Source: Paraspadella gotoi
Lineage: Eukaryota > Animalia > Chaetognatha
Direction of reading: 5' to 3'
DNA: 64,000 nucleotides
Assembly: GCA_051294375.1 (NCBI GenBank)
Contig: CM119266.1
Span: 16,362,087 to 16,426,086, forward strand
Both the position numbers and the translations under genes were made by a program. Shown one piece after another: positions 2,085 through 57,304 of this stretch (its first letter is position 1; every line of letters starts with the position of its first letter). The notes under the pieces are model-generated. The model was not told the origin of the DNA. It searched no databases and saw only the letters and a program-made list of their open reading frames with translations.

Positions 2085-3796
2085 TTTTCTACTCGTTATC
2101 GGTCGCTGTAGTATACTTTCCTCGTTTTGATGTAAAATATTTCTTAATTTTTATTTACTCTGAGAAAATGCGCAGTTTTATTTTAAAAGGAAAAGAAAAA
2201 AAATCGTATATATTTTAACTAAGGTATCTTTAATTGTTAAACGAGTTCAAATGTAGTTCATATTCAACGTGATAAATTTAATTGGCGGCAATTTTGTTAT
2301 TGTTGTAGTTGTTTCTTGTTGCCGATTTCAAAATGGCCTTTTAACATAATACGCTCACTAAATGGATTTAATAATTTTACGATGCACATGTGACTTTAAT
2401 GATTCGAATGTAAACTTGAACATAAGTTATTTAATTAAGTGAATTATTTTTACAATCACACATTGCACCTTATTTCATTGCTTTATACGATGAATTTTTC
2501 ATCATGCCTGGCAGAAAGAAAATAAAAAGAAATTTACTTAAATATTTGTACCATAATGTAATGTTACTCTAATGTACGTACGTATATCAATTTGTAATTG
2601 CATGTTTATATTGATTAAAACTTTTTACTATTATCTCGGCTTCTCATTTACTTAATTTAAAGACTTGCTTTTACGATTAGTGAAGCACATTCCTTTTAGG
2701 ACGTCGCAGTAGAGCTTGTAAATGTAATCATGTACGTATTGTGAGAGACTGAGAAAATCATCGGATTAGATTTTCTTCATTATGTCGCATCTGATTTTCT
2801 AATTCTAAGAGTAATATTGGTCTTTCAATACCATTATGACTAAATATTTAAATTCGATCGAAATAAATAATTTGTTTTTGATATTAAATGAAACCATGAA
2901 TGGGACTCCCATTAAATTCGAAATATAACAGAACCTAAACCTGATATATCTAAAGCAATTCCAAAACAAACGTGGATATAGGCGATATAGCCGAGGCTAT
3001 GATAACCTTTTGTTTTTCATCAGTAATCCCTTCTGATCTCAAAACACTCTATTGGGAAAATGGAGAAATCACCATTGAAGATGGACATAAGATAAGTAAA
3101 TAAGGATGCATATTTTAAAAAGTCCTTTAACATTTTTTATTATGGACATAGAACTTGTAAATAAGCTCATTGGATCGACCGACTCAAACAAACAAATTAT
3201 CGGTTTTACCAAAAAAAATTTCGTAAATAGAAAAAATAAAATATAGGATTAATACTATTGATTAATTAAATTTGAAATTTATTATTTCTAATGAATTTTA
3301 ATTTAAATCTTATTTTAAATGACAAAGTTAGTATAAAATATTTGTCATAGTAATCAGCGAGACAAAAATATTATTTCGATTATTATTATTTTTTCTTTTA
3401 GTTTTTGTTTTCAATAATTCTGCCTCAACGAAATAAAAACTTAGAATCACATGTGAAACGAAAGAAAAGGTTAAGGGTGAGGGGGTAATTATCCAATGAA
3501 GAGTTCGCTCCTCCACATCCGTTCAGTTTAATGATGATCGAGAGCGTTCGGTTTGAACGAAGGAGCCAATGAAAATCTTTCTTTCGTTTTGTTTCGTTTC
3601 GAGTCGAGGATTCTCATTCCCCCCGCCCAGTCTTCTCGTCTCGAAAAACGAACGAACCGTTACAAGAATTGAAAATTTTATTTATTTTTTTACATTTCCC
3701 CGAGAAACTAATTTTATTCCACTGTCATTCGTAGATCGAAAAAAGAAAAAAACGGTCACAGAATCGACAACGCCAAAAAAAACAAAAAAACCGGCC

Positions 3797-6538
3797 ATGT
3801 CCAACCAAGAGTTGAGTCGTGCGTGGGACGCGCAGTACGCGGTTGCTGACGACGCGTCTTGCGTCAACAGGAGGTCTTTGGACGCGACGCAGGTCCAGGA
3901 GACCGAGAGCGGGGAGGCAGCTGTGACGGAAGTGAGTCGTCATCACAACGTCCCAAGAATATCGTTGATCGTCCTCACGTTGATCGTCTATGTCGTCAGC
4001 GAGGGAGTTTTTCAGCCTAAGGAGGGTAACAAAATTGAAGATCATTGTCGAATTCTTTGAATCCACCGTACTCATTTTGATTATCGATATTAGCCCCGTC
4101 ATGGCGGAAGAGCTGCTTGAGATGATGTTTGCGTCAAAGTTTAGTGACCTTGCTAAGCTCCATTTATTCAATTGAGCAGCTACGATCTCTATTAAAGACC
4201 TTAAGTTAAAGAAATGATGACCCATCCCTTGTACTACAGGTTCCCGACTGTTTCGCCTAACTGAGGCTAAACTGTCGTCCCGGTTCGAGTCTCCGCTCGA
4301 CGCCTCATCTACTCTGGACGACATAGTGTGGCCTGTGGTCTACGTCTTTCAAGCGGCCTGGCTCCTTCTCGCTATCTACGCTGTCTTCAGGAAAACCGAG
4401 GCGGTCCAGATAAGATCGGTGAGGTTTGTAGTTGTCTTCATAAAAATTTTAAAAAAATGCTTAGAACGACACTCTTGATTTGGCTCAAGAGAGATGTTCG
4501 ATTCTGTGTATATATATTCGCGAAAACAAAGAAACATATTTTTCTGTGCCGCTGAATCATATCCTTCTTTGAAAGCAAGATTTGTCACTTTTTTTATTAG
4601 GACGGATCTCGAGTTACCATGCGAAGCTACCTCTACCTTTATCCGGACATTTTCAAGACGCACACATTTTATCTTTTTATAGTGACGCAGGTGAAGCATC
4701 AATCGGATAAGTGCTTAAGGCTAATTTTTTACGCAAAAAAGTTATTCTTTTTTTGTTTGTTTTTCGTTGCTACCTTTTCTTTTTTAAACATGCTATTTTA
4801 AGTTGGTGACAAATGCTACTTTTGAAGAGACTGTGATAATTGTCATTTGTTAGTAACAGAACCGTTCAATATAAGCAGTCCCTGAGCTTCGGATCAGGCT
4901 GTAACACCGAGTTATAGGCGGGTTAAGCGCCCCGTAACTCTTAAATGCAAGGCGACCACCGGGCTAGAACCCCGGACCTTTGGGTTGGGAGGCGAATGAC
5001 TTGCCTCCGGCACCAATGGCTGCTGATGAACGGTTGGTGGATTTTAGTCCAGCATACTTTTTAAATTTAAAAAAATTAACAAGACATTCCTTCTTCTGAA
5101 CTATTTGTTTGTAATATTTTTTTTCCAGCTGTTGATTGTCGCCTGTCGGTTCATTTACGACAACGAAATTCTCGTAGCCAAAATCGTCGCTCAAATTCTT
5201 ATTCATCTGCTACTTTTAAGTAATTTTCGCTATTTGGTCGAGATTTATTATGCTGAAATTTACTGTACATAAACAAAGTCTTTAAATGATAATTCTTAGA
5301 CCTAACTACCTACACTAGGGTCAATTATGAAGTATTATCAGATTATCATTTTAAAAAATAAAAAAGGATGTATAATACGAATAATTGAAAATTTTAAATA
5401 AAGCGATATCTTGGAGTTATGAGGTATTTTTAACGCGATATTTTCGGTATTGTTCAGTTTCTCAAAATATCTTGCAGCTGCTTCCGTCTTCGTCTGCAAA
5501 GGAGTCAAACTTTTCGTCGACGAAGGAAACGATTCTGGCGTCAGATTCGCGCCTATTCTTAAAGTAAGCCGTTCCCTCTGTAGCATCGTTAACAACAACA
5601 AATTAAAGGGAAAAAATTTGTAAAAAGTCTAGTGGTAGAAAAACCCGAATTTCATGTTTAATATTTGATTAAAAGGTATATATTTTATGGGTAAATGCCT
5701 GTCATGTTACGAAATTACCTCCTCATTAGGGGACGCGGAAATATTACGAGCTTTTCGCCCTTCGTCTGTTCTTCCTGAACGGAGTCTGCCTTTACGCCAG
5801 CTGGGCCCTCTTTCGCTCGATGATCGGTGAGTAACTGAGTATGTATGTAGAAGAAACGTGAGCGATATGATTTTCTCATTCACCCATTTACGTCTCACCC
5901 TATGAAAAACTTCAACGCCCCGCAGGTTTGTGTTCGTTCATGATTCACATCGAGTTCCTGACCGTCCAAAAAGACATCGCCTCCATTTTGTGCGTCAACT
6001 TCCTCCTGATGCATTTCGTTATCTTTGCCGTTTTAGGTAAAAAAAGGGTAGTTGGGTCGGAAATCTGGTGTAACCAAATTTCACTTCGCATTGTGCGAGT
6101 CAAAGAAAAGTAAATTGTGGACACTTAGTCGCTGTTGTACAGAAGATTTTATCATTGATGTTTGCCTTAAGTTTACAAGAAATCATTATTTATTGGTTAC
6201 GAATTATGATTCTATTTTTTATCCCTCTGGAATGTTCTTCAGACAATTTCTACTTCGATGAATACACGCGGTATATTTTCTCTCCATACATCGTTGGCAT
6301 CGTTTCCGTTGCTGGTAGGAAAGAACTGAAGAATCGGATTTTATTACGAATTGTTGTCTTTGTTAACTTGGCATTACTTTTGTTATTACGACATAAATTT
6401 TGCTTTTGCTAAGGCTCGGTCAGCAATGCCTTCAACGCCAGGGACGCGATCAAGATGGAGACAGTGATGGCGCTGGTCTTTTTCGTTGGATTCACAATGA
6501 ACAAAGTTTTCAACTTGGTCCGAAGATCCATGCGATGA
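3797..6538 (+). CDS. Multi-pass membrane protein of an uncharacterised invertebrate TspO/MBR-like family (9 exons)
   Basis: Phase-consistent GT-AG exons: 3797-4025, 4240-4418, 4601-4690, 5129-5219, 5478-5563, 5730-5826, 5926-6036, 6243-6314, 6414-6538. The spliced protein has motifs HNVPRISLIVLTLIVYVV, IVWPVVYVFQAAWLLLAI, RLFFLNGVCLYASW and DNFYFDEYTRYIFSPYIV. Family assignment is from motif recall. Confidence 0.8.
4848..5054 (-). mobile_element. Diverged solo-LTR-like (or SINE-like) element, 'family D': tRNA-like head followed by a twister-like motif, in intron 3 of the membrane-protein gene
   Basis: Sense termini TGCTGG...CTAACA. A 72-nt tRNA-Gly-like segment (4952-5023: TTCGCCTCCCAA, GGGTTCTAGCCC). 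An internal AACCGTTCA/TGAACGGTT inverted pair brackets the tRNA and ribozyme-like parts. No clear TSD. Confidence 0.5.
4875..4948 (-). ncRNA. Degenerate P5-type twister ribozyme-like motif
   Basis: Sense reads GAGT TA CGGG GCGC T TAA CCC GCC TATAAC-TCGGT-GTTACA G CCTG ATCCGAAGCT CAGG. The TCCG/CGGG pseudoknot is intact, but the catalytic G position reads T and P2 is imperfect, so it is probably inactive. Confidence 0.5.
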
Positions 6539-6661
6539 ATCGCGCGCCCATCTTTTTTACTTTTGTTACATTTTTGTCTGTACATCAAATAAAATTGCTC
6601 AATAATTTTAATTTTTATTACATCTCCCTCACTCTTCCGCTCTCTCTCCACCTACCTCCGT

Positions 6662-6794
<133 letters not shown>

Positions 6795-7760
6795 ATCTAC
6801 AATGTCTCAATGACAATGAGTCGCGGTATGTAATTGGTTCGTATTCCTGAGTGAAAGAAATGAAGACTTGAAGAGTGCGGGGTGAGAGAGAGAGAGAAAA
6901 AGAAAAAGAGAAGAGCGAGAGAGAGAGAGAAAATGAGAGTGGCGACAAGGAAAAACAATGCCTGGAATCTTTTGGGGGTCTTGAAGGAATAGATTTGAGA
7001 TCGGGAGTAAAACATCCTCAAATAAGTTAATCTCCGGCTCTGACGTCAATTGGGCCGCTGCCCGCTTCGATCGAGGAAGACCGCGCGGAAAGTCGCTTCC
7101 ATTTAATTTCGTCCAGGAAGATACAAAAACCAGTGACTTTGTAACTGTTTGTTGGTGACAATTGTGAATTATGAATCTTGATTAATTAATCATTAATGGC
7201 TCGATGGCAGCCGAGAAAAGAGTCGGCGAGAACAAGCAAGCAAGCTGTGAATTATTTCTCGAATTAAATATGTAGAAAACTTAATGAAAAAGAGCCGATA
7301 GCAAAAAGCTAGACGAAATGTAACGACGACGACGAATTCGAAAAAGCAAATTGAACTTAGGATGCGAACTCTTTTCTGGGTCCGGAAACGAAAAGATATT
7401 TTTTAAATGTTTTTAAAAGATTATAAAAAGCAAACGCTTACATTTTACAATTTTTAAATTCAGGTATAAAAATATTCCAAAAATATGTCCTGCTTGTAAT
7501 TTTACTGTCAATATGGTTTTATCTTGAGTGGCTTTGAGAACTGACAGTGATAAGATATTTTTTTTTCCTTATTTATTCGCTGTAATTCTATACTTTTCAT
7601 TCCAACTACCCATGAAGCCTGTTGAAGCCATAACAATATAAAATAAAATAATACTTATAAGGATTTTATTTTTAATTTGTTGAAATTTGAAGGGATCTTC
7701 GTTATTTCCGGCGTTCTTTTTATAAAAAGTTTCGATTTGTTCACGACTTTTGACATTTGA

Positions 7761-25648: not shown

Positions 25649-26484
25649 TTAGCTTATTACCACTTAATTATCGATTGACCTAGAATTTTGTATGTGAGTA
25701 GAAAAGTGTGTGATTGAACAGGAAACCAAGTTTCGATGGAATCTTTTGAGTGGAAATGAGTTTAAGTGGAAAAAACAAAAGTCGAATTTACTAAAATATT
25801 TATTTATTTTATTTTAACCAATAAGTACTCTAATTAATCATAATTGGATGGATAGATTGAGTTCAAATTGTTTGTGTTGGTAGAAAAATGTGTAACGATG
25901 CTTGATATAAAGTTTCGGTGGAAACGTACGAGTGGAAATGAGTTTAAATTAAAAAAATATGAGTCACATTTACTTGAATCTTTTTACTTATTTTAACCCA
26001 TAATAGATTGAGATGAAATTTTGTGAGCGGGTAGAGAGTGAGTTAGAGAGAGAGAGAGCAGAAAAATGAGCATTAAGGATCGACTCGCCAATTGCAAAGA
26101 GATGAGAGAGAAGAGAGCAGAAAAAGGAGCATAATGATCGTCGCAATTGCAAAGAGAGAGAGAGAGCAGAAAAATGAGCATAAGGATCGTTGCAATTGCA
26201 GAGAGAGAGAGAAAGAGAGAGAGTCCGAGATTAAAATTAGCAAATAAAAAAGTTATTTTACTCACTGAATAAAAATACTTAAAATACTTACAAAATACAT
26301 AAAATTGATAAAATTATTATTCCGATAACATTGTTTAATCACATGCAATATATCTAGTAAGGCGGGCCAAAATTGAACATTTTTTATAACTTCTAGTTCT
26401 CTTTAAAAATTTTTTTTTCCTTTACTACTAAATCAATTTTCAATGTAACTTTTTGAATTAGTTCAATCCCCGGGTATCCCGGTT

Positions 26485-26562
26485 CTGGCTTAATGTGACG
26501 GTGCCGTATAAACATGCCAGTGACAGGAGAGAGTCACTGAGGGTCCGCAGCCCCTACGCCAG
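26485..26562 (+). ncRNA. P5-type twister ribozyme, family A (predicted cleavage 26509/26510)
   Basis: CTGGC TTA ATGT GA CGGT GCCGT A T^AA ACAT GCC AGTGAC-loop-GTCACT G AGG GTCCGCAGCC CCT AC GCCAG. P5, P2, P3, P4 and both pseudoknots (CCG/CGG; GC/GC) are present. Confidence 0.8.
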
Positions 26563-26617
26563 TTGGTGAGATACCCCCGCGCCCGGGTATCACAGGCTAT
26601 CCTCCCGTTGCCATAAG

Positions 26618-26650
26618 TGGTGAGCCCTACTATCGAACACGCAACCTTCT
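26618..26650 (+). promoter_or_regulatory. Extended primer-binding site complementary to the 3' half of a tRNA-Trp-like tRNA
   Basis: The reverse complement is AGAAGGTTGCGTGTTCGATAGTAGGGCTCACCA, versus eukaryotic tRNA-Trp ...AGAAGGTTGCGTGTTCRAATCACGTCGGGGTCACCA (recalled). It starts 2 nt after the LTR end. Also present at 27559-27587 (-) and 39984-40016 (-). Confidence 0.75.
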
Positions 26651-26899
26651 CAGGGTACGCTACGACAAACGCCTATGCCCTGCCACTTCGGGTACGCTCG
26701 ACAAACGCCTATGCCCCTGGGTACGCTATGACAAACGCCTATGCCCCACGACTCGCGCTCTCTCTCTCTCTCTCCCACTATGGTAACAGTCTTGTCAGAC
26801 ACCTCTCAGGCTTGAGGAACCTGAGTGATGTCTTGGCCGGGGATCCTGTGGCGGTATATTCACACCGCCTCACGTCCACCATCCTTCAGCCAAATCCAT

Positions 26900-26942
26900 T
26901 GGCTCAGAGGGAACACACCATCCCAAGTGTAGTGTTCCATCC
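26900..26942 (+). promoter_or_regulatory. Pol III-like A box / variant B box in the family-B LTR
   Basis: TGGCTCAGAGG (26900-26910) and GTTCCATCC (26934-26942) lie directly upstream of the twister. The B box is non-canonical and the spacing is short. Confidence 0.45.
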
Positions 26943-26966
26943 ACAGTCCTAACGACTTCCCTCTGC

Positions 26967-27046
26967 GTTGGCAAAGCGAGACCGTCCTAGGGTAACCGCG
27001 CCAGTACTGGAGGCGTCACTGAGGGTCGGAAGCCCCCAAAGCCAAC
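26967..27046 (+). ncRNA. P5-type twister ribozyme, family B (predicted cleavage 26993/26994)
   Basis: GTTGGC AAA GCGA GA CCGT CCTAGG G T^AA CCGC GCC AGT(G)AC-TGGAGGC-GTCACT G AGG GTCGGAAGCC CCC AAA GCCAAC. The CGG/CCG pseudoknot is compensatory relative to family A. Confidence 0.82.
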
Positions 27047-27161
27047 TGAGATGCCCCATCCCAATGGGCATCACAGGCAACCCGGCTGTTGCCATAAGCC
27101 ATAAGCCACTTATGGCAACGGGAGGATAGCCTGTGTACCCGGGCGCGGGGTATCTCACCAA

Positions 27162-27240
27162 CTGGCGTAGGGCTGCGGACCCTCAGTGACCGCCTCCTGT
27201 CACTGGCATGTTTATACCGGCACCGTCACATTTAAGCCAG
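27162..27240 (-). ncRNA. P5-type twister ribozyme, family A, in the 3' LTR of E2 (cleavage 27214/27213)
   Basis: Sense: CTGGC TTAA ATGT GA CGGT GCCGGT A T^AA ACAT GCC AGTGAC..GTCACT GAGGGTCCGCAGCCCT AC GCCAG. One C short in the P4 C-run. Confidence 0.78.
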
Positions 27241-27642
27241 AACCGGGATACCCGGGGATTGAACCCGGGACGCACGGATGGAATGATATGATTTAGCCTG
27301 CTCAGCAATTGAGACGAGGCTGAGGACGGACAGCAGTGAGGCAGCTTTAAGTCTTGCTGCCACAGGATCCCCCCACCAGACTTCTCCCACAGGGGCCTCA
27401 ATCCTGAGGAGATGTCTGAGAGAAGGTTTTGATCTCATTGCCATATGTGAGAGCGACAGGCGGCCAGCGAGCGAGCGAGTCTGGAGCGTTACCAAGAAGT
27501 AGGGCATAAGCGTGATATGCATACCCTAAGCGACGTAAGCGTGGGGCACGGTGCGCACGGTTGCGTGTTCGAGAGTAGGGCTCACCACTTATGGCAACGG
27601 GAGGATAGCCTGTGATACCCGGGGCGCGGGGTATCTCACCAA

Positions 27643-27719
27643 CTGGCGTAGGGCTGCGGAACCTCAGTGACCGCCTCTGTCACTGGCATGTTATACCGGC
27701 ACCGTCACGTTTAAGCCAG
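27643..27719 (-). ncRNA. P5-type twister ribozyme, family A, in the 5' LTR of E2 (a few lesions)
   Basis: Same motif 479 nt upstream of the previous copy, with a one-A deletion and substitutions in P2 and L4. Confidence 0.68.
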
Positions 27720-27734
27720 AACCGGGATACCCGG

Positions 27735-27787
27735 GGATTGAACCCGGGACGCACGGATGGAATGAGATGATTTAGCCTGCTCAGCAA
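27735..27787 (-). promoter_or_regulatory. Pol III-like A box and B box in the family-A LTR
   Basis: Sense TTGCTGAGCAGG (27787-27776) and GGTTCAATCC (27744-27735), the latter within a T-arm-like hairpin CCGGG-TTCAATC-CCCGG. The boxes are 31 nt apart, just upstream of the twister. Confidence 0.6.
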
Positions 27788-28503
27788 TTGAGACGAGGCT
27801 GAGGACGGACAGCAGTGAGGCAGCTTTAAGTCTTGCTGCCACAATATAATAAATTATATAAAGTTTTGACAGAATTGTGCCAGTGGAAATGAGTTTAGAT
27901 GGAAAAAACATAAGTACATTTACTTGAATCTTTAATATTAATGATTACTAATAAATGTTTTAATTAATTAATTAATTAATTAATGTGAAAAAATGATGCA
28001 AGTTAAAAGAATCTTAAAAGCATAAAGATCGTCGCAATTGCATAAAAAGAGAGAGAGAGAGAGAGTGAGAGAGAGAGAGAAGGAGAAATAAAAAAAATAG
28101 AGGATATTGTTTGTTTTGATAAAATGTAAACAAAACATATTTAATAACTGTCCTAACCCAATTTTTAGGACATCGATGATGATAAGTTGAATATAAATTT
28201 AAAAAATTAATATACATATTAAAATTAATTCATTAATTAATCGATTAATTAATTAATTAATTATCGTAGGCAGATCCGACATTGTTTGCTCAAACTTGTT
28301 TTATTACATAAATGTTTATTAATATAATGTTGTTCGTTCCTCACTTTTAGAATTTTAATTAAAGTTAAATTTAGAAATTTTACTACGCCTTAGTAAAGAT
28401 ACCTTAAAAGTTTTTATCGTTTTTAGTTTCACGAGTGAAAAACTAAAGAAGTGGATCAAAATCTGAAAAAAATGAATCAAATTTGGGATTCTGCTTCGTA
28501 ATC

Positions 28504-29038
28504 ATGAGTTCCGGAGGAGCCAGGAGGTAAGAAATAAAATCGTAATTACGTAGTTACCGTGATTAGCTACCTAATTTTCGTGTTATTACCAGTACCATGA
28601 GCGCGACCGTGAGAGCTGTAAAGAAGATATCCCGTCCCCTTCCCCCACGCGTCCCCCTCGTCTTGACACCCGCAGCAGTGGGTCGTGTTCGTCATCTTCT
28701 CGAGGCAAACCCTAACGCTTCTGCTCTCAAGGTCGGAGTGAAGACTAGAGGTTGTAACGGTCTTTCTTATACGCTCGATTTTGCCCAAGGTAACATCCGC
28801 CATTGATTTATTTTAAATATTTTTGTATTTAAGTTGCTTTTATCTAATTTTAGAAAAAGGGAAATTCGACGAAGAAGTAGAACAGGATGGCGTTCGAGTG
28901 CTGATCGATCGGAAAGCCCAGCTGTCACTTCTCGGAACTGAGATGGACTACATGGAATCGAAACTTGAGACAGGGTTTGTCTTTAACAACCCTAACATCA
29001 AGGGAACATGCGGCTGCGGCGAGAGTTTCAACATTTGA
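28504..29038 (+). CDS. ISCA1: Iron-sulfur cluster assembly 1 homolog, mitochondrial
   Basis: Exons 28504-28526, 28593-28789 and 28854-29038. LVLTPAAV...[19 protein letters not shown]...[32 protein letters not shown]...[20 protein letters not shown]. Confidence 0.95.
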
Positions 29039-29468
29039 CCTTTTCGTCGAAGTATGAAATTAGATTTATTTTATGATATTATATTATCGCTTTATCCTTC
29101 GCTAGTCAACTACATTTCGGAAAAAAAAGATAAGCTTTTTCTCTGTCGTTCAATTTTCTTGTCCAGCGCTATAATTCACGTTTCGGCCGGTCCGTCTGTT
29201 GGTTGGTCTGTCCCACTTACGTATTATATGCTAATAATTTGGGTAATACTTCATCAATTTAGACCGACGGCATGTCTGTCCGTCATATGAAATTTATACA
29301 ACCAATATAAGCTATCTTGCCTCCATCTCTCTTACAAGATAATGACATAGCAGGTCCCTTCAAGCTTTCCATCAAGCTCTCTCACAGTCTCGTTCATTCA
29401 CTCCCAGAGTACCTGGCTTCCTAATCAACTTTAGTAATACTTTATCAGTTTATAAGTTTATGTACCCT

Positions 29469-29695
29469 AATAGCAATAGCCGTGTTGCCTGTGATTCCCA
29501 TTGGGATGGGGCATCTCATTGTTGGCTTCGGGGGCTTCCGACACTCAGTGACGCATCCATTCACTTGCGCGGTTACCCTAGGACGGTCTCGCTTTGCCAA
29601 CGCCGAGGGATGTCGTTAGGACTGTGGATGGAACGAAACTCCTGGGATGGTGCGTTCCCCCTCTGGACGTGAGGCAGTGTGAATATACCGCCACA
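29469..29695 (-). mobile_element. Solo LTR of the family-B twister retrozyme-like element (E3)
   Basis: Starts at the same TGTGGCGG terminus (29695) and ends at a degenerate GCTATT. An internal deletion removes part of the A-box region. Contains a mutated twister at 29521-29601. Confidence 0.75.
29521..29601 (-). ncRNA. Degenerate family-B twister ribozyme
   Basis: GTTGGC AAA GCGA GA CCGT CCTAGG G TAA CCGC GCA ... GAGTGTCGGAAGCCCC..GCCAAC, with two core substitutions. Confidence 0.6.
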
Positions 29696-30567
29696 ATATG
29701 CATTAAACAATTATATAATCCGAATTTTTAATCTGCATAATTTATGAAATACTGAATCATTTTAGTTTATACTTATCAGACTGCTTCTTGTGCATATGTT
29801 TTATATTCGTTTCATGTGATACAGCATATATTGGTTGTTTTGCTTGAAACTTTACGTAATGAACCTGGGATATTCTTTCTTTTTCGTTATGTATGAGATG
29901 AGGAGGGGAGTTGTGAATAATGTAAAAAAATGGTAAAGGCTTGTATTAAAGCCGAAACATGTCCTTTTTTAAAAATAAAATTCTACGTTTGTAAACAATA
30001 AAAAACCTCTCTCTCCGAAGTAATAAACTATAAGTTGCGTATATTTTAAAATTGGGTCGTCACGTGATCATTAGGAAATACGCGACTTGCCGGTTCTTGT
30101 TATATATAAAATTAATTATATTTAAATGTCTTTTATTAAAAGTTTGATTATTATAAAGCTTATGTTTATTATAACTACTAGCGATAACAGACTGTTAATT
30201 AAAAAAAAAGCTGAAAATGTTTATGGTATTAACATTTTTCAAACGTTTGTTTCAAATCGAGGTAACCCAGATAGGTGAGAAAATATATACAGAAAATATA
30301 TGGACGTACTTAAGGGAGTGGTCCTTTATACAATTGGCAGATTCTTTGAAATATTTTACCACTTAATAGGAAACCCAGGCACTATGGAAGTGAATAAACT
30401 AGACTGTGTGAGTCTTGATTGAAAACTTGCAAGGTCCTGCTATGTTATTTTATTGTAAGAGGGATGGAAGACTTTACACCCCATAGCATGTCCAAGGTTA
30501 GTGACAAGATTGCTCATTTATTAAATGGATGGATAATTTATATATTGGTTGCATCAATTTCAAATAA

Positions 30568-30809
30568 TGTTATCGGGCATTGCCTAAGTTCACCCCGCCT
30601 ATAAGCATGTGACCCGGTGGCTCATGGAATAAAGCCATCAGCTCATGACCACTAGGTACCGGGTTCAATCCCAACCCGGTATATACCCTGCGGGAAGCGT
30701 GAGGACGGCCGTAAACCACCTTTGGGGCGTGTAAAACCCACTCGCCTGGTTCCAAGCCCAGGACCCGTTCAATGGCTGCTAGAGGGGGTTAAAGAAATTG
30801 CGGATAGCA
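30568..30809 (+). mobile_element. Solo-LTR-like element 'family C' (242 bp): 5' hairpin, tRNA-like A/B boxes, twister-like motif
   Basis: Termini TGTTATC...GATAGCA. The tRNA-like segment 30611-30680 contains TGGCTCATGG and GGTTCAATCC. Homologous to the 33261-33502 copy, including sequence upstream of the tRNA head. No TSD seen. Confidence 0.55.
30690..30768 (+). ncRNA. Degenerate P5-type twister ribozyme-like motif
   Basis: GCGGG AA GCGT GA GGAC GGCC G T^AA ACC ACC ..TGGG-loop-CCCA.. G CCTG GTTCCAAGCC CAGG A CCCGT. Canonical L4 and a TCC/GGA pseudoknot; the conserved GCC reads ACC. Confidence 0.55.
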
Positions 30810-31362
30810 CTCTTCACAAAAATATTATGCCCATTAGCACCCTAGACCATACAGATACATTCATATTTTTTGAGTGTAAAGTTGAAGAAAAAATGTTTAA
30901 TTTTTGTTCCGCAGTATCTTACCCTGTCGTCTTCCAAGAAAAAAACTTCCGGCGGCGATTTGCCTCGGGAATTATTTGGTGATTCATCGTTATATATCGT
31001 TATCTTATATGATATTTGATGCGTGATACTAATACGTAATCAATGCGACGTTTTCGACTTTCGATGTTATTTAATTGTATTGAAGTTGATCTCATGTTAT
31101 GTGATGTTATTGTTTTCTGACAGTTAATATTTTTCATGAAAACACGAGTTGCAGACTCATCCCAGAAATGCAATTACTAAACTAAGTACACTTTCGTTTT
31201 CTTTTCTCTGGTACAATTTTTTTTTTACTTTTCGGTAAATTTTATTTGACTAAGCGGAAGCGGTACTTATGACTCTAATTTACCGAAAGTTAACGACAAC
31301 TCTTTGATTGAAACTTAGATGCGGCGAAACTGACGAGGCTTGGAATTTTTAGTTTAACCAAA

Positions 31363-37300: not shown

Positions 37301-40300
37301 TCATTTTTTTGGCAGTTATGAAGGTTTTGTTTGTAATGGTTATTATGGTTTTTGTAATTGTGGTTGTTGTGATCGTTCTAAAGTTCTAATTAGGTGTAAA
37401 AAAAAAAATTAAAATTTGGTAAAAATGCTTAAAATTAAATGTTAACCGGTCATATACATTTTGTACAATTAGGCTTTGTGACTGTGTGTCCCTTTGCCAT
37501 TTTCAAGTTTAAAAAATTAATTATCTTTTTCTTTTCTTTTCTTTTCTTTATACTTTCTTACAAGTTAATTCAGAACTGTTTTAAAGGTCATTTTTTGTGG
37601 TGGTGTTACCGATCTCAGCCGTTTCCAAATCCAAAGAACCATACAAATTTTAAATTAAATTCAGATTTAAATAAAAGAAAGGAGGTGAAGGAAGGCAACC
37701 GAATTAGGGGAGAAAAATTCTAAAAATAACAGGAGGAAATTTATCGTACTTGAATTCATGAATTTAGAGATTCAAAAATAAAAAATATCAATTTTCATAT
37801 CCGTTAATTTTAAAAAATTAATATTAAAATTAATTAATTAGTATTACTTATTAATTAATATTAATTATCAATATTATCAATCAATTCGAGATTATCCTTT
37901 CGTTTCAGTGTGTGAAATCAGTCAATTAGAATTATTTTTCATCGATGATTAACCGTTAACTTTTAAGCGGTTAAAAGGCCTACTTCTAATGGTTGTGGTC
38001 ATTATCGTGGTTGTTTGTCTGTTGTCTCAGTTATTTCAGTTATGGTCGTTCTGGTGGTTTTGGTGATTGTCGTTTTTAATATAATGGTTTTGATTATTAT
38101 TGTTATGATAGTTGTTGTGGTTCGTGGTTATGAGTATTGTTGTTTTGATTATAAATGTTAGTATGGTTTTAATTTGTGGTTGTTATCGTTGTTATGGCTT
38201 AATAGTAATTGTTATTTATTTGTTTGTGGATGTAGTTCTGGTTGTTGATGATTTAGTATTTATTGTTGTTGCAGCGTTTTTTATACATTTTATATGAAAC
38301 AGGATAAAATGAAAAATTTCATTTTAAAAAATATCTCGTGTTTTTCCTTTTAAAATCACTTCCACTTGCCCGATTCCGTCAAAATTTTATTTCGAATTAC
38401 TAGAAATATGGTAACAAATCCTTTTTTTTTTTTTGGCTACACCCGTAGATGGTTTCTGCTTTAGTTGTAACTTTTATTTTTACTATAAACAATGCGTATT
38501 TTCCGTATTTTTCCCCGCGTTTTTTTTTTTTTCGATCTAATTTTCTGCGAGTTGAACGATTCTTTTTTTAAACGAAATTTTCGATTATTTTCGTCGTAAT
38601 TTGGGAATTCTTAAACAAAAAAAACTCATATCACTTGATCGTTTTGATTCTATTTATGGTTATGCCTTATTGATATTAAGCTTTTTTTAATTGTTAAATC
38701 AGTAATTACTAGTTCGTTCTTTTCTTCTATGATCATTTTTATCAATCTCCTCGTCTGAGTGGGTAACATTATTTTCCAGTTTTTTAAATGGTGTAGTAAT
38801 TTTCCTATGACATTCTCGATGGTCCTTGACTTAATCCCCAAGTTACTATTTGTTTATTCCTCACGGATTCTTAAGGTGCATTAGAGGAGCATTATGTTTG
38901 AATCATTCCAGCCATAAACGCTAGGAAAAAGTTTTCGTTAAGGCAAGGGTGCTGGCAATTTATAATAATCGGATCTTTTTAACCCTTTTCCTTTGCTGTA
39001 GGTTTTCAGTCGTTGTTTTTATTACAAAATTCAATTCGTCCTCTTCATTCACTATCAATTTTGTTTTAGCTGACTTTTTCTTTCTATTCACTTTACTATA
39101 TCTCCATATTTATAATCAACTACTAAAATATTTTACTCTATCGGGCAACTGAGTCATTTTAGATAATACTTAGCCGGAATCATTAAATGATCATTGTGCT
39201 CATGTTTCATACTAAACTCATGTAGTCATGTGACAACATAGAAATGCGATCATGTAAAGAGAAAACCAATGCTACTTATTTTATGTAACGGTTGGTTATT
39301 TTAGTTAATATTAGTAATATTATAATATTGTATTATTTTTTCTCTCTTTTCGTTGCTAAGTGAATATTAGGAAATGTTTATTAATGTGCCAATACAACGA
39401 TTTTATTATTAATAGTACATGTTTCGACTCTGCTGGTTCGAGTCCTCATCAGCAGAGTCAAAACATGTACTATTAATAATAAAATCGTTGTATTGGAACA
39501 TCAATAAACATTTCCTAATATAATATATTATAATATAATAATATTATAATTATGGCACAACAGCCGGTGCTTGGCCCATGTGGGATATGCTACTGTTGGC
39601 TTTGGGGCTTCGGACCTCAGTGACGCCTCCAGTCACTGGCGCGTTACCCTAGGACGGTCTCGCTTTGCCAACGCAGAAGGAAGTCGTTAGGACTAGGATG
39701 GACACTACGCCTGGGATGGTGTGTTCCCCCTCTGAGCCAATGGATTTGGCTGACGGATGGTGGACGTGAGGCGGTGTAAATATACCGCCACAGGATCCCC
39801 GGGCCAAGACATCACTCAGGTTCCTCAAGCCTGAGAGGTGTCTGACAAGACTTACCATAGTGGGAGAGAGAGAGAGCGCGAGTTGTGGGGCATAGGCGTT
39901 TGTCGTAGCCTACCCCAGGGCATAGGCGTTTGTCGTAGCGTACCCGAAGTCGGCAGGGCATAGCGTTTGTCGAGCGTACCCTGAGAAGGTTGCGTGTTCG
40001 ATAGTAGGGCTCACCACTATGGCAACAGCCGGGTTGCCTGTGATGCCCATTGGGATGGGGCATCTCACTGTTGGTTTGGGGGGTTCCGACCCTCAGTGAC
40101 GCCTCCAGTCACTGGCGCGGTTACCCTAGAGGACGGTCTCGGTTTGCCAACGCAGAAGGAGTCTTAGACTATGGATGGAACACTACGCCTGGGATGGTGT
40201 GTTCCCCTAGGGTGTGCCAAAAATTTCAAAATCATAATAGCTCAATTTACATCCGGCACAATATGTGGGGGCATAAAGAAGTATGTTTGCCCAAATCTCA

Positions 40301-43300
40301 TCGAATTTGCTTCAACACCCTTAGCACTACCCTCGCTTAAAGGATTTTTGGCACACCTTTGACTAAAAAATTAATTGTTTAAAAAATATGACTTGTTTAT
40401 CCGTCCACTCAACTTTATTAGCTGAGGAAATCATCAAAGATTATTTCACATCAATTTGAAGTGCTCTTCTCATCCACAGCCTTCACAACTGGCTCCACAG
40501 CATGCTGGAGGATGTGGAGTTGATAACATCATTGCTTATAATTCCTAACCATTCAGGGTAGAATCTTTTACTTTGACATAGTTTCACAACTAATATGTTC
40601 CTTTATATAAATCAACAACATTTGATTTTATTTAGTGGTGTGGTTACATCCTGGAGGATACTTTCTGTACCTTTTTTTATTTTTCATAAAATTGCTATTT
40701 TAAATTACATTTTTAGATTATTTATATTACAGGCTGATGTAAGATGATAAATGGGTCAGATCTAAAAAAATTGCATGAATTAAGCCTAGGTTTCAAGAGA
40801 GCCTCTCTTGAAGGATTGGGAGCACACTCAACACCCCCTTTAATGAGTAAAGATACCTTATTTTTTTAAAATATTAAATGCTTGTTTGGTTAAAATTTTA
40901 TGACCAAAATTTATACTTCAAGTTTTGATACACCTAATACCATTAAAAACTAGAGAAGATTTTAAATACTGCATTATGCAAAATGGATTTTGGTATCTTA
41001 TTTGCTTCACTAGAGAATCGTTGGAGAACAATAACAAAAGGGGGACAAATGTACGAATGTATTTGAAAAAATCTTATTTAAATTAACCGGAAGATCTTAT
41101 AACTCCGACAATGACGACAACAACGACAACAGAGGATTTACTGAATTTTGGTGAAAGGAATCTTTGTGACTAAGGTCATGTAAATGACTGAGGTCAATTC
41201 AAGTCATCTGAGTAAAATAATTATTAAACGCATAACTTATCAAAGAATAATTTTAATTTAAGACATTTTTAGCACAATATATATATAAATATTTATAATA
41301 ACATTAAATGAATTAATATGATTAGTTCAAATAAAATTCACAAAGGAAAATAGCAACAGCAACCACAGAGACAATTAATAATTGAACATCTACAAAGTAT
41401 ACAAATTATTGGATATAGTCAAGTAAATAAGAATAAGGCAAAAAAATGGAAAAAGAGGACAACAATAGCAATAATAAAAAAAATATATAACAATACAACA
41501 ATTTGTATTAAATTATTAGAATTTAAAGTTGTTAAGTTTCAAGGGAAATAATATTGTGTGAAACTGTGAATGCTTTCTTTCTTTGAGTTGTTAATTAGTT
41601 TGAGAGAAGACATTTTGTTTTGTGTTAAAAAACAACGATTTTTAAAATAGAAACAAATAATGTACATGTTGAGACTTATTCAGCGCGAATTAAATGATTT
41701 TCAAAATTTGTTTTTAATGTGGAAAAGAGAGGGAAGGAGAGAGAGAGGGGGGGGGTTTCTAACAAAGAATTTGAAAAACGACAGTGATTGTTATTATAGT
41801 TTTGTCATGTTTGTTTCTGTTTGTTACTAAAAATTATTTATAATGTTTTTTCATGAAAGTATTGAAGATGCTGAATACAGTCCGACTTTTCGTCTTCTCC
41901 TTCCGGATCTGCTTACAGCAGATTTCGGCTCTATAATTCAGTTTGTCGGTCCGTCGGTCCGCCCCCCCAATCTTGTCGGGCATTCACTTATATCATGTCA
42001 GAACATCGAATTATGATAAATTATGAGTAGCCATTGTATTATTCCTTTCTTTTCGTTGAGTTTAGAGATTTAGAAAAAAAGTTTGAAATTTTTGTTTCAT
42101 CAATTAAATTCGTTGATGAAACAAAAATTTCAAACTTTTTTTTCTAGATAAATTATGAAAAAAAATTAATGTCCGTCCGTCTGTCTGTCCATCTGTCTGT
42201 CCGTCTGTCCATCCATCCCACCTTAGCAACAAAAAAAAACCAATTCCTCGTGATTTGATGGATGGAGTGGATTGAAATTTTGTGTGTGGGTAGGAAAGTG
42301 TGTGATTAAGCTGGAAATCAGGTTTCGATGGAATCGTCCAAGTGGAAATGAGTTAAAATGGAAAAAACGAAAAAATATATTTCACTATTTGAACGCCAAT
42401 TACTCAAGAGTGAATGTGGTGATTGACTTCAAATTTTGGGCGAAATGCTCTTCGATGCCCCCTTGCCGTATGACGGAGCAGCGAATCTCTCTCGCTCGCT
42501 CTCTCTCTCTTTGGCTGATTGACTCAGAGTCAGGATCTGGATCAACAAAAACGACAACGAAAATTTGAACGATGGATTAATTGTTTAGGGTTTCGGTTAG
42601 GGATAAGGTTAGTTTAGGTGATAGATATTAGGGATTAGGATTGGGATTAGGGTTAGGGATTAGGGTTGGGATTAGGGTTAGGGATTAGGGTAGTTTTTTC
42701 CTACGCTACTTTTGCAACAATAAAATTCTGGCTTGCTGGGTGAAAGAAAGAGAGAAAGAATTAAGCCTCCGTCAGGATCGGGATAGACAGAAACAACGAA
42801 GATAATTTGAACGATGGAGGAAGCAGTTGCGACGGTGAGAGTGACGACTAAAGGAGTGACGCATAAAACAACGATGGAAGTAGCAAAAGATCTGATTTTT
42901 GTGCGTGTGTCCGAGTCCGCTGCTTCAGGCGTACCAAATTTGGTCACAAGTTATGTGGGTAGGAAAGTGTGTGTTTGAGCAGGAAATAAAGTTTCGATGG
43001 AATCGTCCAAGTAAAAATGGAAAAAAAAATCAATCTATTTCACTATTTGATTATGCTTTTTTTATATTGAATTTAAATTAAAGCTGCATTTAATAAGTGA
43101 GTAATAAATAAATAAGTAATTAATTAATTATTAATTATTTGTAATTATTAATTAATTAATTTTGTGATCGAGATTGTTGTTTTGTGATTGAGAGGCGAGA
43201 CAAAGTGAAAAACGATTTTGACACGAATTAAAAAAAATATTATTAATTATCTAATGAATGTGGGCATTGTTTGCTCAAACTTATTTCTAATAATTGAGCT

Positions 43301-43800
43301 GGCTCTAATATTATCATTTACAATAGATTTTACATCGGAGCTCCGTGATCTCACTCCTGTTTTTGTCTTTTCTCCCCTTTTTTCTCTCTGTCTTCTTTTC
43401 ATTCTATCTGTCTGTCTTCTTTTTCTTCTTTCTGTCTGTCTTGTTTTCCTTCTTTTTGTCTATCTTGCTTTCCTTCTTTCTGTCTGTCTTGTTTTTCTTC
43501 TTTCGTTTTTTCTCTTTTTCTCTTTTTTTCATTTTATTTTTCTCTCTTTCTCGTTTTCTTTTTCTCTCTTTCTTTCTCGTTTTCTTTTTCTCTCTTTCTT
43601 TCTCGTTTTCTTTTTCTCTCTTTCTTTCTCGTTTTCTTTTTCTCTCTTTCTTTCTCGTTTTCTTTTTCTCTCTTTCTTTCTCGTTTTCTTTTTCTCTCTT
43701 TCTTTTCCGTTTTCTTTTTTTTTCTTTTTTACTCGTTTTCTTTTTCTCTCTTTTTTACTCATTTTCTTTTTCTTTCTTTTTTTCTCATTTTCTTTTTCTC

Positions 43801-43843
<43 letters not shown>

Positions 43844-46800
43844 GTCAGTCATTCTCCCTTTATAAAAGCTTATATCATTCTTTCTTACATTTACTTAGCA
43901 CTGTTAATTTAGCACTGGTTAATTAAATAAGATTTCTTCAAATACATTCGTACATTTGTCCCCCTTTTGTTATTGTTCTCCAACGATTCTCTAGTGAAGC
44001 AAATGAGATACCAAAATCCATTTTGCATAATGCAGTATTCAAAATCTTCTCTAGTTTTTGATGGTATTAAGTGTATTAAAACTTGAAGCATAATTTTTGG
44101 TCATAACATTTTAACCAAACAAGCATTTTATATTTAAAAAAATAAGGTATCTTTACTCAGTTAAAGGGGGTGTTGAGTGTGCTCCCAGATCCTTCAAGAG
44201 AGGCTCTCTTGAAACCTAGGCTTAAATCATGCAATTTTTTTAGATCTGACCAATTTTTGTATCATCTTACATCAGCCTGTAATGTAAATTATCCAAAAAT
44301 GTAATTTAAAATAGCAATTTTAGGAAAAATAAAAAAAATAACAGAAAGTATCCTCCAGGATGTGACCACACCACTAAATAAAATCAAATGTTGTTGAGTT
44401 ATATAAAGGAACATATTAGTTGTAAAACTATGTCAAAGTAAAAGATTCTACCCTGAATGGTTAGGAATTATAAGCAATGATGTTATCAACTCCACATCCT
44501 CCAGCATGCTGAGGAGACAGTTGTGAAGGCTGTGGATGAGAAGAGCACTTCAAATTGATGTGAAATAATCTTTGATGATTGCCTCAGCTAATAAAGTTGA
44601 GTGGACGGATAAACAAGTTATATTTTTCAAACAATTAATTTTTTAGTCAAAGGTGTGCCAAAAATCCTTTAAGCGAGGGTAGTGCTAAGGGTGTTGAAGC
44701 AAATTCGATGACATTTGGGCAAACATACTTTTTTATACCCCCACATATTGTGCTGGATGTAAATTGAGCTACTATGATTTTGAAATTTTTGGCACACCCT
44801 AGTGTTCCCCCTCTGAGCCAATGGATTTGGCTGACGGATGGTGGACGTGAGGCGGTGTGAATATACCGCCACATAATATTATATATTATATTATGATATT
44901 AATTTTAGTTAATATTTTAGTTTTAAAAAAATTAATACTTTACAGATAAGTGATGAATCATAAGATGCTTGTGCATGTTTCATACATGTGTAGTGTGTAT
45001 TCAGTCATTATCGAAAATGCGTCCACCAAGTCACCGCAACACCTCACACCGTCAGTCACCTTGAATATGCCAGTTCGTCGTTTTTATTTCTTCCTTATCA
45101 GTCAAAATATTTTCAAATTAATGCATTTTTTTTCCTATTGTTGCATGTTTTATTCAGCCAAAAAAATCCTTTTTCTCGAAGGAATTTTTAATATTTCCTG
45201 GTTCGTTTTTTCGTTGTTAGCCTAAGGCTTTGTCAGGTTTTACAATCGAGTTTCTTTCTGAGTCTGGTTTATAGGCAAGCTGTCTCCTTTATTAATATAC
45301 CTATACGTTTTCGGTGTAACTAAAATTACGATTCTCATTAAGAAGCAGTTTATTTGGAAAAGTAATATTTACTAATGTCGGCTTATTTTCCGAGAATATA
45401 AATTCTCTGTAGTTGATGGGGTTTTCTGCTCGTATTTTTCTATTTCTCTAGAGAAAATTATTTCAAGTTGTTTAAATGAATGTTTACATACGTCGTTACT
45501 TTCCGATATCAATCATTAAATCTTTTATCGACTTTAAAATTTCGTAAACGCCATACTACTACTTCATGAGGTCGACGACCACTCGCTATTTAATTTTCGT
45601 TGGAATGATTAAAAATAGAAAAGATTACTGTCAATCTTCGAATTACGAATGTAAACGTAACCGAACAAAAATACTGATTATGAAAGCTCCTTTCGTTAAT
45701 ATTTTTTCGCTTTTTTTGACCGATCAGGCATTTCTTTATCAACGATGAAGCCGATTACTACAATGACATCAACGCCAGTCAGACATTGCCATCGGAGATT
45801 GTGCAAAAAGAACATGAAGGCGAACTGGATTATGATTGGCAGAATTGGTTACATGAGCAAACAAATAACTGGATTTTCCAGAAGCGCCTCAATGAAAAGC
45901 GCGCTGAAGAAGATGCGCGGATGGGTCAAACAAACGCCGCGGCGGCAATCATGCGCCGACAGATGGAAGAGTACCAGGAACAGATGCAAACCTGGATGGT
46001 GGATATGAATGAGTGGATGAAAACTCAACGGCTATCACCAGAAAAATTGAGAGAAATGAAAGATATGATAAAGCAGCAGATGGAACAAGTAAAACAAGTG
46101 GCTCAGTCAGCTGATTTCATGGCTTCCCATGGACCTGGCGTCCTTCCAATTGAGAAACCTCCGAGAACTACCTCAAATATCAGCAGTGAATATTCTGTTC
46201 AACAATATGCAGCATCTGCATCATCCACCGGTCAAGCTGGGCCTCTCAAACAAAGACCTTTATCTGTCACAGCTTCTGTTGCTCCCGAAGTTCCTCCAGG
46301 ACCTCTTCCATCGGGCTCTCCCAGAGGATTTCCTGCGGGAGTAATGCCTCCATTTGATCCCAAACGTCCGCCTCCGAGCTACCATGCAGGTCACACACCA
46401 CCTATCCACGTACTGCCTCCAGGTTTTCAAACCAATACTCCCCCACCGGGTTATGCTGCCCCCTTAAGCTCTATCAACTCTCCCGCTCCTTCACAAGGCG
46501 TAAACATGCACAGAAGACCGTCTGCAAGATCTGTGGAAGCTCCAGTAGATGGGGTTGGAATCCCACAAAAGTACAAACCTTGCTTTAATTTTCGACGAGG
46601 CAAATGCCATTTGACCGAGGAAGAGTGTCCTTACAGCCACAGCATTGAAAGACGGGATAAACCTTGTATTGCTTTCAATCAAGCAAGTTGCCGGTTTGAC
46701 GCTGATTGCTGTACTTACCAGCATGTTTGTAAGTTATGTGGCGGACCGGAACCACTCCGCAGCTGTGGGTGCCAGGATAGACGCTCGCCCGATAGATTAT

Positions 46801-52800: not shown

Positions 52801-55105
52801 TGCCATATATGAAAAGTTTTGAAATCAAAAAACGAGTATTGTGTAAAATTTTATAATGGAATTATGACTTTTAAATAAGGTAGTTTTTTTAATTTTTTTT
52901 CTATATAAAAGAAAAAGAAAAATTGACAAAAGCGATTAAATGATTAAAAATTGATAAAATGAGACAAAAAGAGTAAAATTAATGAAAGTTAAGCAACTGA
53001 GAGAAGTTGCTTGCTGCTTACCGATCGAGAAGAAAAAAATCATCATCTAGAGTGCCAAAGAAAGAAAACTAGTTATTCTATTTTTTTCATAAATTACCTT
53101 TGTCAAGCTAGTTCTCCAGAACTGAGTTGAATTATAATTTGTGTTAAATATATTGCTTAATCAAAGGTTGTAAAAGACTTGGAAAAATATATTAAGCTTG
53201 CTTGATTAATTTAAGAATAGATCCGACTTGTTAGTAAATTCATCAACTATAAAAGATATGAAATGAATAAAAATCAAAGATGAATTAAAAATTATATTTA
53301 TTTCAAAACTAAATCGACTATTTACAATAGACTTAATTATTAACTATAAATCATGAATAGATAACAAAAAAATAGAATAACTAGTTTTTTTTCTTTGGCA
53401 CTATACCTTTTTTTTCTCGACCGGCAAGCAGCAAGCAACTCTTTTCTCAGTTATTTAACTTTCATTAATTTTACTCTTTTTGTCTCATTTTATCAATTTT
53501 TAATCATTTAATCGCTTTTGTCAATTTTTCTTTATATTTTATAGAGAAAAAAAATTAAAAAAACTACCTTATTTAAAAGTCATAATTCCATTATAAAATG
53601 ATAAAAATTGAAAAAAACTTTAATGACCTGGTGAGACAAAATATTAAAGTTACCCATTGTCAAATCAGAATTTACTATTTTTTTATTTAATCTGAGAAAA
53701 GTGCATTCCCTTTTTCCCTTTAGCCTAGTTCAAACCTATTAAATAAAAATAATTATTAAGGAAAGTGATTTTTTTTAAATTTAAAAAAATTATAACTTTT
53801 TAACCGATAATCCTTTTTTAAAAATTCTTTCAGCAAAACAAAGGCAATTTATTTATTCAATTCGCCATAATTTTTTTTACAAAATATTTCATGAACTTTG
53901 TTAAAAATATCATTTTTAAAATTTTTTATCAAAAATTGCCCAAAACAATAGGTTTTAAAAAAATTTTACTTAGTATAAAATTCACTTAATTTATAATGCA
54001 AGGTATGTAACAGTCAATTTTTTCCGCTCTACAAGATAGTTTGGGTTTCGTCTCTCTAGCAATAAAGCTTTTAAAGATATTTAGCAAAAAGTCCATTTTT
54101 TACCATTTTTTTCATTTTTTTCAAAGTTGGCAGCATTTACTGTAAATTTATTTTTGAAAAAAATGTTCAAAAAATTCATATGATGTATGGGCACCTTTTA
54201 CACAATACTCGTTTTTTGATTTCAAAACTTTTCATATATGGCAAGGTCTAGTGGACATTGTGAAAATTCATTGGGCCTCTCTAATATCCATTTGGCCGAT
54301 ACTCCTGCCGATTGCCCTCTTCTCACTAAAGGGTAAGGTGGGCTGGCACTAGTTCTTACTGCCTTGGCAGCAGGACTAGGGCCTTCCCCTCTTCTAACTG
54401 AAGGCGTCTTTTGGGTTGACACCCTGCCCAAAAGGGTCGGGTTGAATTGCTGCAGTGTCAGAGGTTGCCCATCGTCATTTGAGAGGTCTCCGCCTGTCAC
54501 GTTGAGTAGTGGCAGGAGACATTTTGGTTCCGGGCCCTCCATGTTTTGATAAGCGAATTGTAGCTTGGAGAGAGTTGGAATTGTCCTCCATCCAAGTTCA
54601 AAGAGTGTTTCAGTTATTGTCATAGGCCACCCAGAGACATTCTGTTTCTCTAAACAGATAGCCGGTTTCTGGCTAACATAGCCGAAACCTGTCCAAAATT
54701 TAATAAAGTAGTTGTGTTAAACAATAAAAAACTTATTTTACATTTTCTCGTTTTACTTTTCTATTCTATTAGGCGTGTGCAAAAATTTTAACGTTGGAAC
54801 TTGTCCTTTCCCGGTAAGTCGCGTTATAATTTTCTGTTCAGAAAGTTCTTTTGACTGAAATATATCTATATAAACTAAATGTTCTCGAGTGCGAATATTA
54901 GCTGAAATTATTGTATGAAAATTTCAAAATTACTTGTTTTACTCTTTTAAGTCTTAGATTTTATAATATTCATGAGGCAAAATGGTTTTTGTTTTACAAC
55001 GAATTTTTTTATTTTTCATAGAAAAAACGGACATGTTTTCGGCTTTTAGTTGCTTCAGGTCAAACAATTTGTGAATTTTGGACAGTTTTTTTGTGTGAAA
55101 GAAGG

Positions 55106-55136
<31 letters not shown>

Positions 55137-57259: not shown

Positions 57260-57304
<45 letters not shown>

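Follow-up and report, generated by a model that had tools for sequence, protein, structure and literature searches.

Does a twister ribozyme whose P1 stem has shrunk to a short palindrome cleave as a dimer? The question is raised by a 64,000-nt stretch of Paraspadella gotoi DNA (the window). The stretch is of animal type: its genes contain introns, and microsatellites and repeats are abundant. An initial annotation had described four twister families in which P1 is only a self-complementary stub, and had proposed that the twisters in the 5′ and 3′ LTR of one transcript pair through these stubs, so that cleavage occurs only on full-length RNA. The parallel lies in the dimer-type type I hammerheads, in which helix III is palindromic, a feature thought to spare monomeric circles (PMC4209133, PMC7229834 and PMC6765202, in the available text). 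As described there, the examples from Penelope-like elements and from amphibian retrozymes (PMC4209133, PMC7229834) share with the folds reported here a core-adjacent stem of 1–2 bp, a palindromic loop, tandem repeats and, in our prediction, a strand-swapped double ribozyme. They differ in that they belong to an unrelated class whose activity depends on helix III; twisters can dispense with P1. Moreover, dimer cleavage has been shown for the hammerheads, whereas the twisters of the window are known here from sequence alone.

According to the available text of the twister literature, a P1-less twister cleaves at a near wild-type rate (review PMC5408937; PMC6154101), P1 length, stability and flaws had no effect on cleavage in CHiTA, which covered ≈1,900 natural twisters (PMC11662667), and Schistosoma twister variants with a poor P1 were active (PMC8501958). 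The caveat that accompanied the annotation, that some twisters cleave without a formed P1, agrees with this (PMC5408937). The Schistosoma Perere-3 twisters resemble those of the window in their weak P1 and in residing in animal retroelements, but they are of type P1, the insertion site supplies P1, and the words palindrome and dimer have no occurrences in the available text (PMC8501958). Likewise, no dimeric twister appears in the text available to us of PMC10085705, 10.1101/2022.07.19.500677 and 10.64898/2026.07.22.740005. A search mostly confined to literature outside subscription found no publication on a dimeric or palindromic-P1 twister.

Type-P5 Twister Folds in Four Families

A descriptor scan of the 64-kb window, combined with inspection by eye, gave nine type-P5 twister folds in four families: three in family A, four in B, one in C and one in D. 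Rfam returned zero twister matches in the window, both at the gathering score and at E values up to 5. The family B fold in a 3′ terminal repeat (26967–27046, + strand), found from the sequence and the descriptor scan and without an Rfam match, consists of P5 (26967–72/27041–46), P2′ (26976–78), the general-base G (26980), T1′ (CCG, 26982–84), the U|AA site (26993–95, with the predicted cut at U26993|A), T2 (GC, 27000–01), P3, P4 (27023–25/27034–36) and L4 (27026–33). The family A fold, also in a 3′ terminal repeat, lies on the opposite strand (27162–27240, −; predicted cut U27214|A). The single copy of C is at 30690–30768 (+), with T1′ (GGA) at 30703–05 and L4 at 30750–57, and D is at 4878–4945 (−; predicted cut U4925|A).

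In A and B, the U|AA site, the general-base G and the A before T1′, and the L4 form U-NNN-N-AGC in P5 order are intact, and all of these are also present in the C copy. Family A has a C at the trans A·A place, which is reported as tolerated. Both pseudoknots, T1 of 3 bp and T2 of 2 bp, are complementary in A, B and D, and T1 covaries across these families (CGG/CCG, CCG/CGG and GGA/UCC). P4 and P5 are paired in the same three families, and P2 has 4 bp in A, 3 bp and a C·A in B, and 2 bp and a mismatch or bulge in D. The single C copy, the only one through which that family is known in the window, is degenerate at P2/T2, and its 5′ strand of T2 is not GC. The window copy of D has a U at the general-base place (4936), at which 96–99.8% of the aligned depth of public sequencing runs has G; D is therefore a real twister family of which the window contains a decayed copy.

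The families follow the type-P5 order of RF02684 (P5-P2′-GA-T1′-P1-UAA-P2-GC-P4/L4-P5). In the RF02684 consensus and in 20 phage examples, P1 has 6–9 bp and an ordinary loop and there is no P3, whereas the window families have a P1 of 1–2 bp with a palindromic tetraloop, have P3, and are undetected by the model at E values up to 5. The 6–8-nt stub forms no P1 hairpin of several pairs and the RF02684 score stays below threshold; because twister P1 is dispensable, these features define a variant and do not exclude the folds from the type-P5 class. The four families carry type-P5 twister folds that are likely to be self-cutting and that Rfam has overlooked.

The family A/B pattern had no matches among the viral contigs searched. 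A looser pattern picked out 68 metagenome stretches, none of which combined a complementary T1 with a P2 of 4 bp; these were taken as chance, as were the four that had T1 and three pairs. The + strand of D offered another candidate twister, which was rejected because its loop lacks U-NNN-N-AGC.

P1 Reduced to a Palindromic Stub

Between T1′ and U|AA, every family has only a self-complementary stub, 8 nt long in A and B and 6 nt in C and D. The stubs are UGCCGGUA in A (27222–27215, centre CCGG), UCCUAGGG in B (26985–26992, centre CUAG), CGGCCG in C (30706–11, centre GGCC) and GGCGCU in D (4931–4926, centre GCGC), and their registers were set by the twister core, not chosen. They sit where the initial annotation had placed them, in somewhat wider registers, and in C, for which only the centre GGCC had been given, the stub is a perfect 6-mer. 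Four different centres agree with its observation that palindromy is kept through sequence change.

The palindrome is kept in seven of the nine window copies, the exceptions being an A copy that has lost one G (26502–08) and a B copy with two extra nucleotides (40133–24). Conservation across genomic copies, which had been suggested as a check, was followed in contigs of public runs. Ten runs contain part of 26400–30850; four of these (X1, X4, X6 and X8) were aligned to 26900–27300, with 153–7,308 contigs per run, and D was covered by three of four runs (490–7,638 contigs), run X10 having no contigs on it. These contig numbers show that A, B and D are very repetitive, although depth does not give copy number. 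The palindromic stub is the majority form in A, B and D; C rests on its one copy.

In the B stub, A26989 is the only one of the eight positions that varies at 2% or more among the variants listed, by per-position fractions. It is replaced by C (3.2% in X1 and 2.2% in X4) or U (2.5% and 1.7%), and by either at no more than 0.7% in X6 and X8, so that ≈4–6% of the B depth in the two deep runs (X1 and X4) breaks the palindrome centre. The milder A-to-G change at this position is absent among the variants listed. In the A stub, none of the variants listed affects the central CCGG, but the outer pairs vary: the outer U is replaced by A (12.8% in X1 and 4.1% in X4), the outer A by C (6.0% and 2.4%) or U (2.6% and 1.0%), and a G·U becomes A-U (2.0% and 0.4%). 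No position of the D stub varies at 2% or more in the three runs that cover it.

Chance, Energetics and Phage Controls

In a single strand, the stub can close a tetraloop with 2 bp in A and B and with 1 bp in C and D. The argument that a hairpin would need a loop of 2 nt or less was therefore too strong, as it holds only if every pair is formed. The predicted energies are unfavourable for these hairpins on their own (+2.7 to +5.6 kcal/mol) and favourable for helices between two stub strands (−8.3 to −11 kcal/mol); for B, the values are +2.7 kcal/mol for the hairpin and −10 to −11 kcal/mol for the duplex, which the A26989 variants would weaken from −11 to about −6 kcal/mol. All four tetraloops are Watson–Crick palindromes and all are different. 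Their centres differ by the changes CG/UA and GC/CG, through which complementarity is retained at two positions that are unable to pair within one strand.

The chance that all four tetramers are palindromic is 1.5 × 10⁻⁵ to 5.4 × 10⁻⁴, depending on GC content. It is 0.0026 under a shuffle of all 16 loop letters and 0.099 when letters are shuffled inside each loop, a null that retains the balanced composition; for the centre dinucleotides alone it is 0.004–0.028. All of these figures are guides, because the families partly share ancestry: A and B are related, and the four are not fully independent.

As a control, a script was run on 36 viral loci and yielded 20 distinct P5 folds (17 of the 20 loci in one batch pass Rfam RF02684). 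The P1 segment of these phage twisters is 15–30 nt long; a palindromic loop is found in 0/20 and a palindromic tetraloop in 0/11. The centre dinucleotide is self-complementary in 4 of the 11 tetraloops, which makes the centre-only test weak.

Could monomers suffice? P1 would then have shrunk to 1–2 bp with a compact tetraloop, and its palindromic look would come from an extra C-G/G-C closing pair, GC richness and shared ancestry. The B variants yield CUCG and CUUG loops, and CUYG loops are favoured tetraloops, though the energy model favours only CUCG (+1.5 versus +2.7 kcal/mol), placing CUUG at +3.6 kcal/mol. The centre-only chance of 0.004–0.028, or ≈0.017 at the control rate of 4/11, leaves further room for this explanation, as does the dispensability of P1 in published twisters, as far as the available text of PMC5408937, PMC11662667 and PMC8501958 describes it. 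However, whole-tetraloop palindromy is found in 4/4 families here against 0/11 control tetraloops, and three of the four loops consist of G and C only. The bivalve elements described below also have long even palindromes, among which there are three different centres, and a stable hairpin needs no palindromic loop. We consider the monomer explanation rather unlikely.

Elements That Carry the Ribozymes

The A and B units are non-coding and consist of two direct repeats of ≈250 nt (TG…CCATA), with TGG two bases behind the 5′ repeat. The A element (27111–27843, −) has terminal repeats of ≈253 nt (27843–27590 and 27364–27111) that start with TG and end with CCATA; TGG follows 2 nt behind the 5′ repeat and a G-rich tract precedes the 3′ repeat. 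The TGG of A and B may be a primer-binding site for tRNA-Trp, which it resembles; the G-rich tract before the 3′ repeat is imperfect as a polypurine tract. The stub of the 5′ repeat of A (27694–27701, −), 479 nt upstream of the 3′ copy, belongs to a copy with small deletions elsewhere in the core. A chimeric element (26461–27096, +) is composed of a truncated A repeat, with a 7-nt stub at 26502–08 and a predicted cut at U26509|A, a B internal region and a B repeat (26847–27096), at whose boundary (27096–97) 93 + 115 contigs of run X1 end. The chimera is joined at sequence shared behind the repeat and abuts the A element tail to tail at ≈27100.

A B element with two terminal repeats (39551–44873, −) has stubs at 40133–40124 and 39654–39647, 477 nt apart; its 5′ repeat is interrupted by a 4.6-kb element (40207–44802), and ATTA is present on both flanks, in AT-rich DNA. 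The 4.6-kb insertion has long terminal inverted repeats. A solo B repeat (29470–29695, −) retains an intact stub (29583–29576). The 4-bp ATTA duplication is found in one of four insertions with two readable flanks (the B element; not the B solo repeat, C or D).

The pair of twisters that the annotation had placed in the 5′ and 3′ LTR is present in A and B, whose DNA carries two ribozymes, one per terminal repeat, with cut sites 477–484 nt apart; for C and D, no second twister copy was found within the window. A Penelope-type reading of A and B, as pseudo-LTRs with a tail, was dropped in favour of LTR-type ends. As in the plant LTR retrozymes described in the available text of PMC4918200, the elements are non-coding, carry a ribozyme in each terminal repeat, and have a primer-site-like TGG, a purine-rich tract, solo repeats and a 4-bp duplication (in one B copy). 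They differ in their animal host, in having a twister instead of a type III hammerhead, and in their ≈250-nt repeats and ≈480-nt unit, and A and B have been seen only as DNA. For the hammerhead repeats of metazoans, that text reports neither a PBS nor a PPT (PMC4918200). Because their repeats contain a twister and no hammerhead, A and B are not retrozymes in the published sense.

Twister Folds with Palindromes in Bivalve Naiads

Naiads are described in PMC8557442 as lacking canonical hammerheads, and the word twister has no occurrences in its main text. The last 500–600 nt of 30 of the 54 Naiad consensus sequences (File S5) were inspected by eye, without a model; the names of the sequences were deduced from their order in File S1. 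A P5 twister fold was seen in five of these 3′ ends, all from bivalves (Mgal, Bpla, Mphi, Scon and Mmer), and in none of the other 25. T2 covaries in these folds, and T1′ is followed directly by an even palindrome: 10 nt in Mgal (CUAG); 8 nt in Bpla, 12 nt in Scon and 10 nt in Mmer (GCGC); and 10 nt in Mphi (UGCA). A second palindrome lies between the first one and the cut site. Six AAGC L4 motifs in the Naiad supplement gave no twister among the matches listed; the five bivalve folds use AAGU or AAGG. These 3′ UTR folds thus share the P5 twister and the even palindrome behind T1′ with A–D, but have a longer segment with two palindromes of 8–12 nt each and reside in autonomous Penelope-like elements.

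Alternatively, the palindrome might act as a dimerisation signal that pairs two RNAs when a helper element co-packages them or switches templates while reverse-transcribing them, and cleavage would be indifferent to it. LTR elements and retroviruses are known to contain palindromic dimerisation signals. The ends of A and B are LTR-like, and the predicted stub duplexes are stable (−8.3 to −11 kcal/mol). Nevertheless, the palindrome lies exactly at P1 both here and in the non-LTR Naiads, where a packaging signal need not be, and we regard this role as improbable.

Several nematode, spider and acanthocephalan Naiad 3′ ends (File S5) have hammerhead-like cores with long or knotted stems. The entries also include oyster and hemichordate Naiads, and a further structured motif, which includes a palindrome of 10 nt, is conserved in the oyster ends. 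In the window, 27113–27131 (+), ≈18 nt antisense of the A 3′ hairpin, resembles the 5′ leaders of Naiad-2_Nbra and Naiad-3_Nbra with one or two differences, a match noticed post hoc.

Predicted Folding of Single and Tandem Copies

The minimum-energy fold of the unaltered A tandem (27843–27106) pairs both stubs and swaps P2 and P5 between the copies, with a stub–stub pairing probability of ≈0.31. In the predicted folds of the B tandem and the chimera, both of which have copies with indels, stub–stub pairing was ≈0. The gain from swapping, relative to two twister-compatible monomers, is −15.1 kcal/mol for A and −13.4 kcal/mol for B, compared with a control median of −3.6 kcal/mol (n = 21 phage folds), although two phage controls reach −12.8 and −13.7 kcal/mol. 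Relative to the best free fold, pairing gains only 2 kcal/mol per ribozyme in A and nothing in B. The folding model ignores both pseudoknots, and these energies therefore lend weak support to a double twister.

As single copies, the A and B ribozymes have predicted misfolding gaps of 9.4 and 9.7 kcal/mol, respectively, with the stub paired elsewhere (control median 3.7, range 0.8–8.6 kcal/mol); with pairing, the gap becomes 7.4 kcal/mol in A and 11.0 kcal/mol in B. Such misfolding would suit a folding switch, in which the ribozyme is inactive as long as the stub has not been freed, by a protein or by an alternative fold, and palindromy is secondary. However, the gap is just 2.3 kcal/mol in the A copy with one stub base missing, which shows that the misfolding prediction is fragile, and palindromy in four families is left unexplained. 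We therefore consider the switch very improbable.

A Double Twister as the Favoured Explanation

The palindrome is real, and it is probably selected for pairing between copies. In an RNA with two copies, the stubs would pair into a 6–8-bp helix, and the GA/T1′ half of one copy would join the UAA/P2/P4 half of the other, so that each core gains a full P1. Compared with that of a single copy, cleavage by the resulting strand-swapped double twister, itself a prediction, would be faster or more complete. A precursor transcribed across both repeats would be cut twice and release a ≈480-nt monomer, which may be circularised as in retrozymes. The monomer or circle, with one ribozyme and a P1 of 1–2 bp, would re-cut more slowly, the same advantage that has been proposed for the dimer-type hammerheads. 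On balance we lean towards the view that the precursor is cleaved more readily when its two LTR copies pair, and that the monomer or circle, having a single ribozyme, is spared.

The pairing itself, as originally proposed, is favoured by the retained palindromy, its absence from the 20 phage folds, its recurrence in bivalve Naiads and the stub pairing in the A tandem fold. Cleavage only on full-length RNA is unsupported as stated, because hammerhead stem III is needed whereas twister P1 can be deleted at a near wild-type rate and its flaws are tolerated (PMC5408937, PMC11662667, in the available text). Strict dependence on the dimer is accordingly doubtful, and we expect enhancement rather than absolute dependence. 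The variants speak both ways: the A centre is more constant than its outer pair, but A26989, the only B stub position that varies at 2% or more among the variants listed, lies in the centre.

More speculatively, the elements may contain an obligate double twister of animal retroelements, in which the palindrome takes the place of P1, only the two-copy precursor is cut and the circle is safe. It would have arisen both in the LTR-type non-coding elements of the window and in bivalve Naiads, and would partly explain why Naiads lack hammerheads. Were this tentative idea true, the hammerhead dimer switch would have been re-invented in a second ribozyme class.

To judge from the literature searched, the palindromic-P1 twister is new; the dimer trick is already known from hammerheads. 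If pairing promotes cleavage, the need to cut multimers and spare monomers has shaped two unrelated ribozymes alike, the “dispensable” P1 of twisters is a natural control point, and engineers could draw on a twister that senses copy number. The folds would also represent a high-copy animal twister class overlooked by Rfam, including folds in published Naiads that were described as lacking hammerheads.

Other Features

Three phage contigs (L011, L013 and L016) have two P5 twisters ≈280–310 nt apart, both with a long ordinary P1. In the window copy of D, the core can form a rival long hairpin (4910–4941) that buries the stub and the cut site. The A, C and D twisters are immediately preceded by tRNA-like stretches with a B-box-like motif (≈27290–27256 (−), 27770–27735 (−), 30612–30680 (+) and 5015–4958 (−)), which may be Pol III promoters; ARAGORN found zero tRNAs in the window. 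Two short flanking motifs are common to C (30600–30608 and 30771–30781) and D (4871–4878 and 5015–5025), and the tRNA–twister cassette is inverted between C and D relative to them.

A pattern scan also found five minimal type I hammerheads in the window (57356–57390 (+), 49610–49575 (−), 39452–39416 (−), 20810–20777 (−) and 10210–10175 (−)). Their palindromic CAUG loop is characteristic of Penelope-like elements, and its likeness in design to the twister stubs speaks for pairing between copies. A sixth match, at 18763 (+), is within a coding exon and looks like chance. A Penelope-like fragment (54973–57447), with a reverse transcriptase end and a GIY-YIG-like frame (56937–55672, −), is flanked by inverted repeats that carry a hammerhead.
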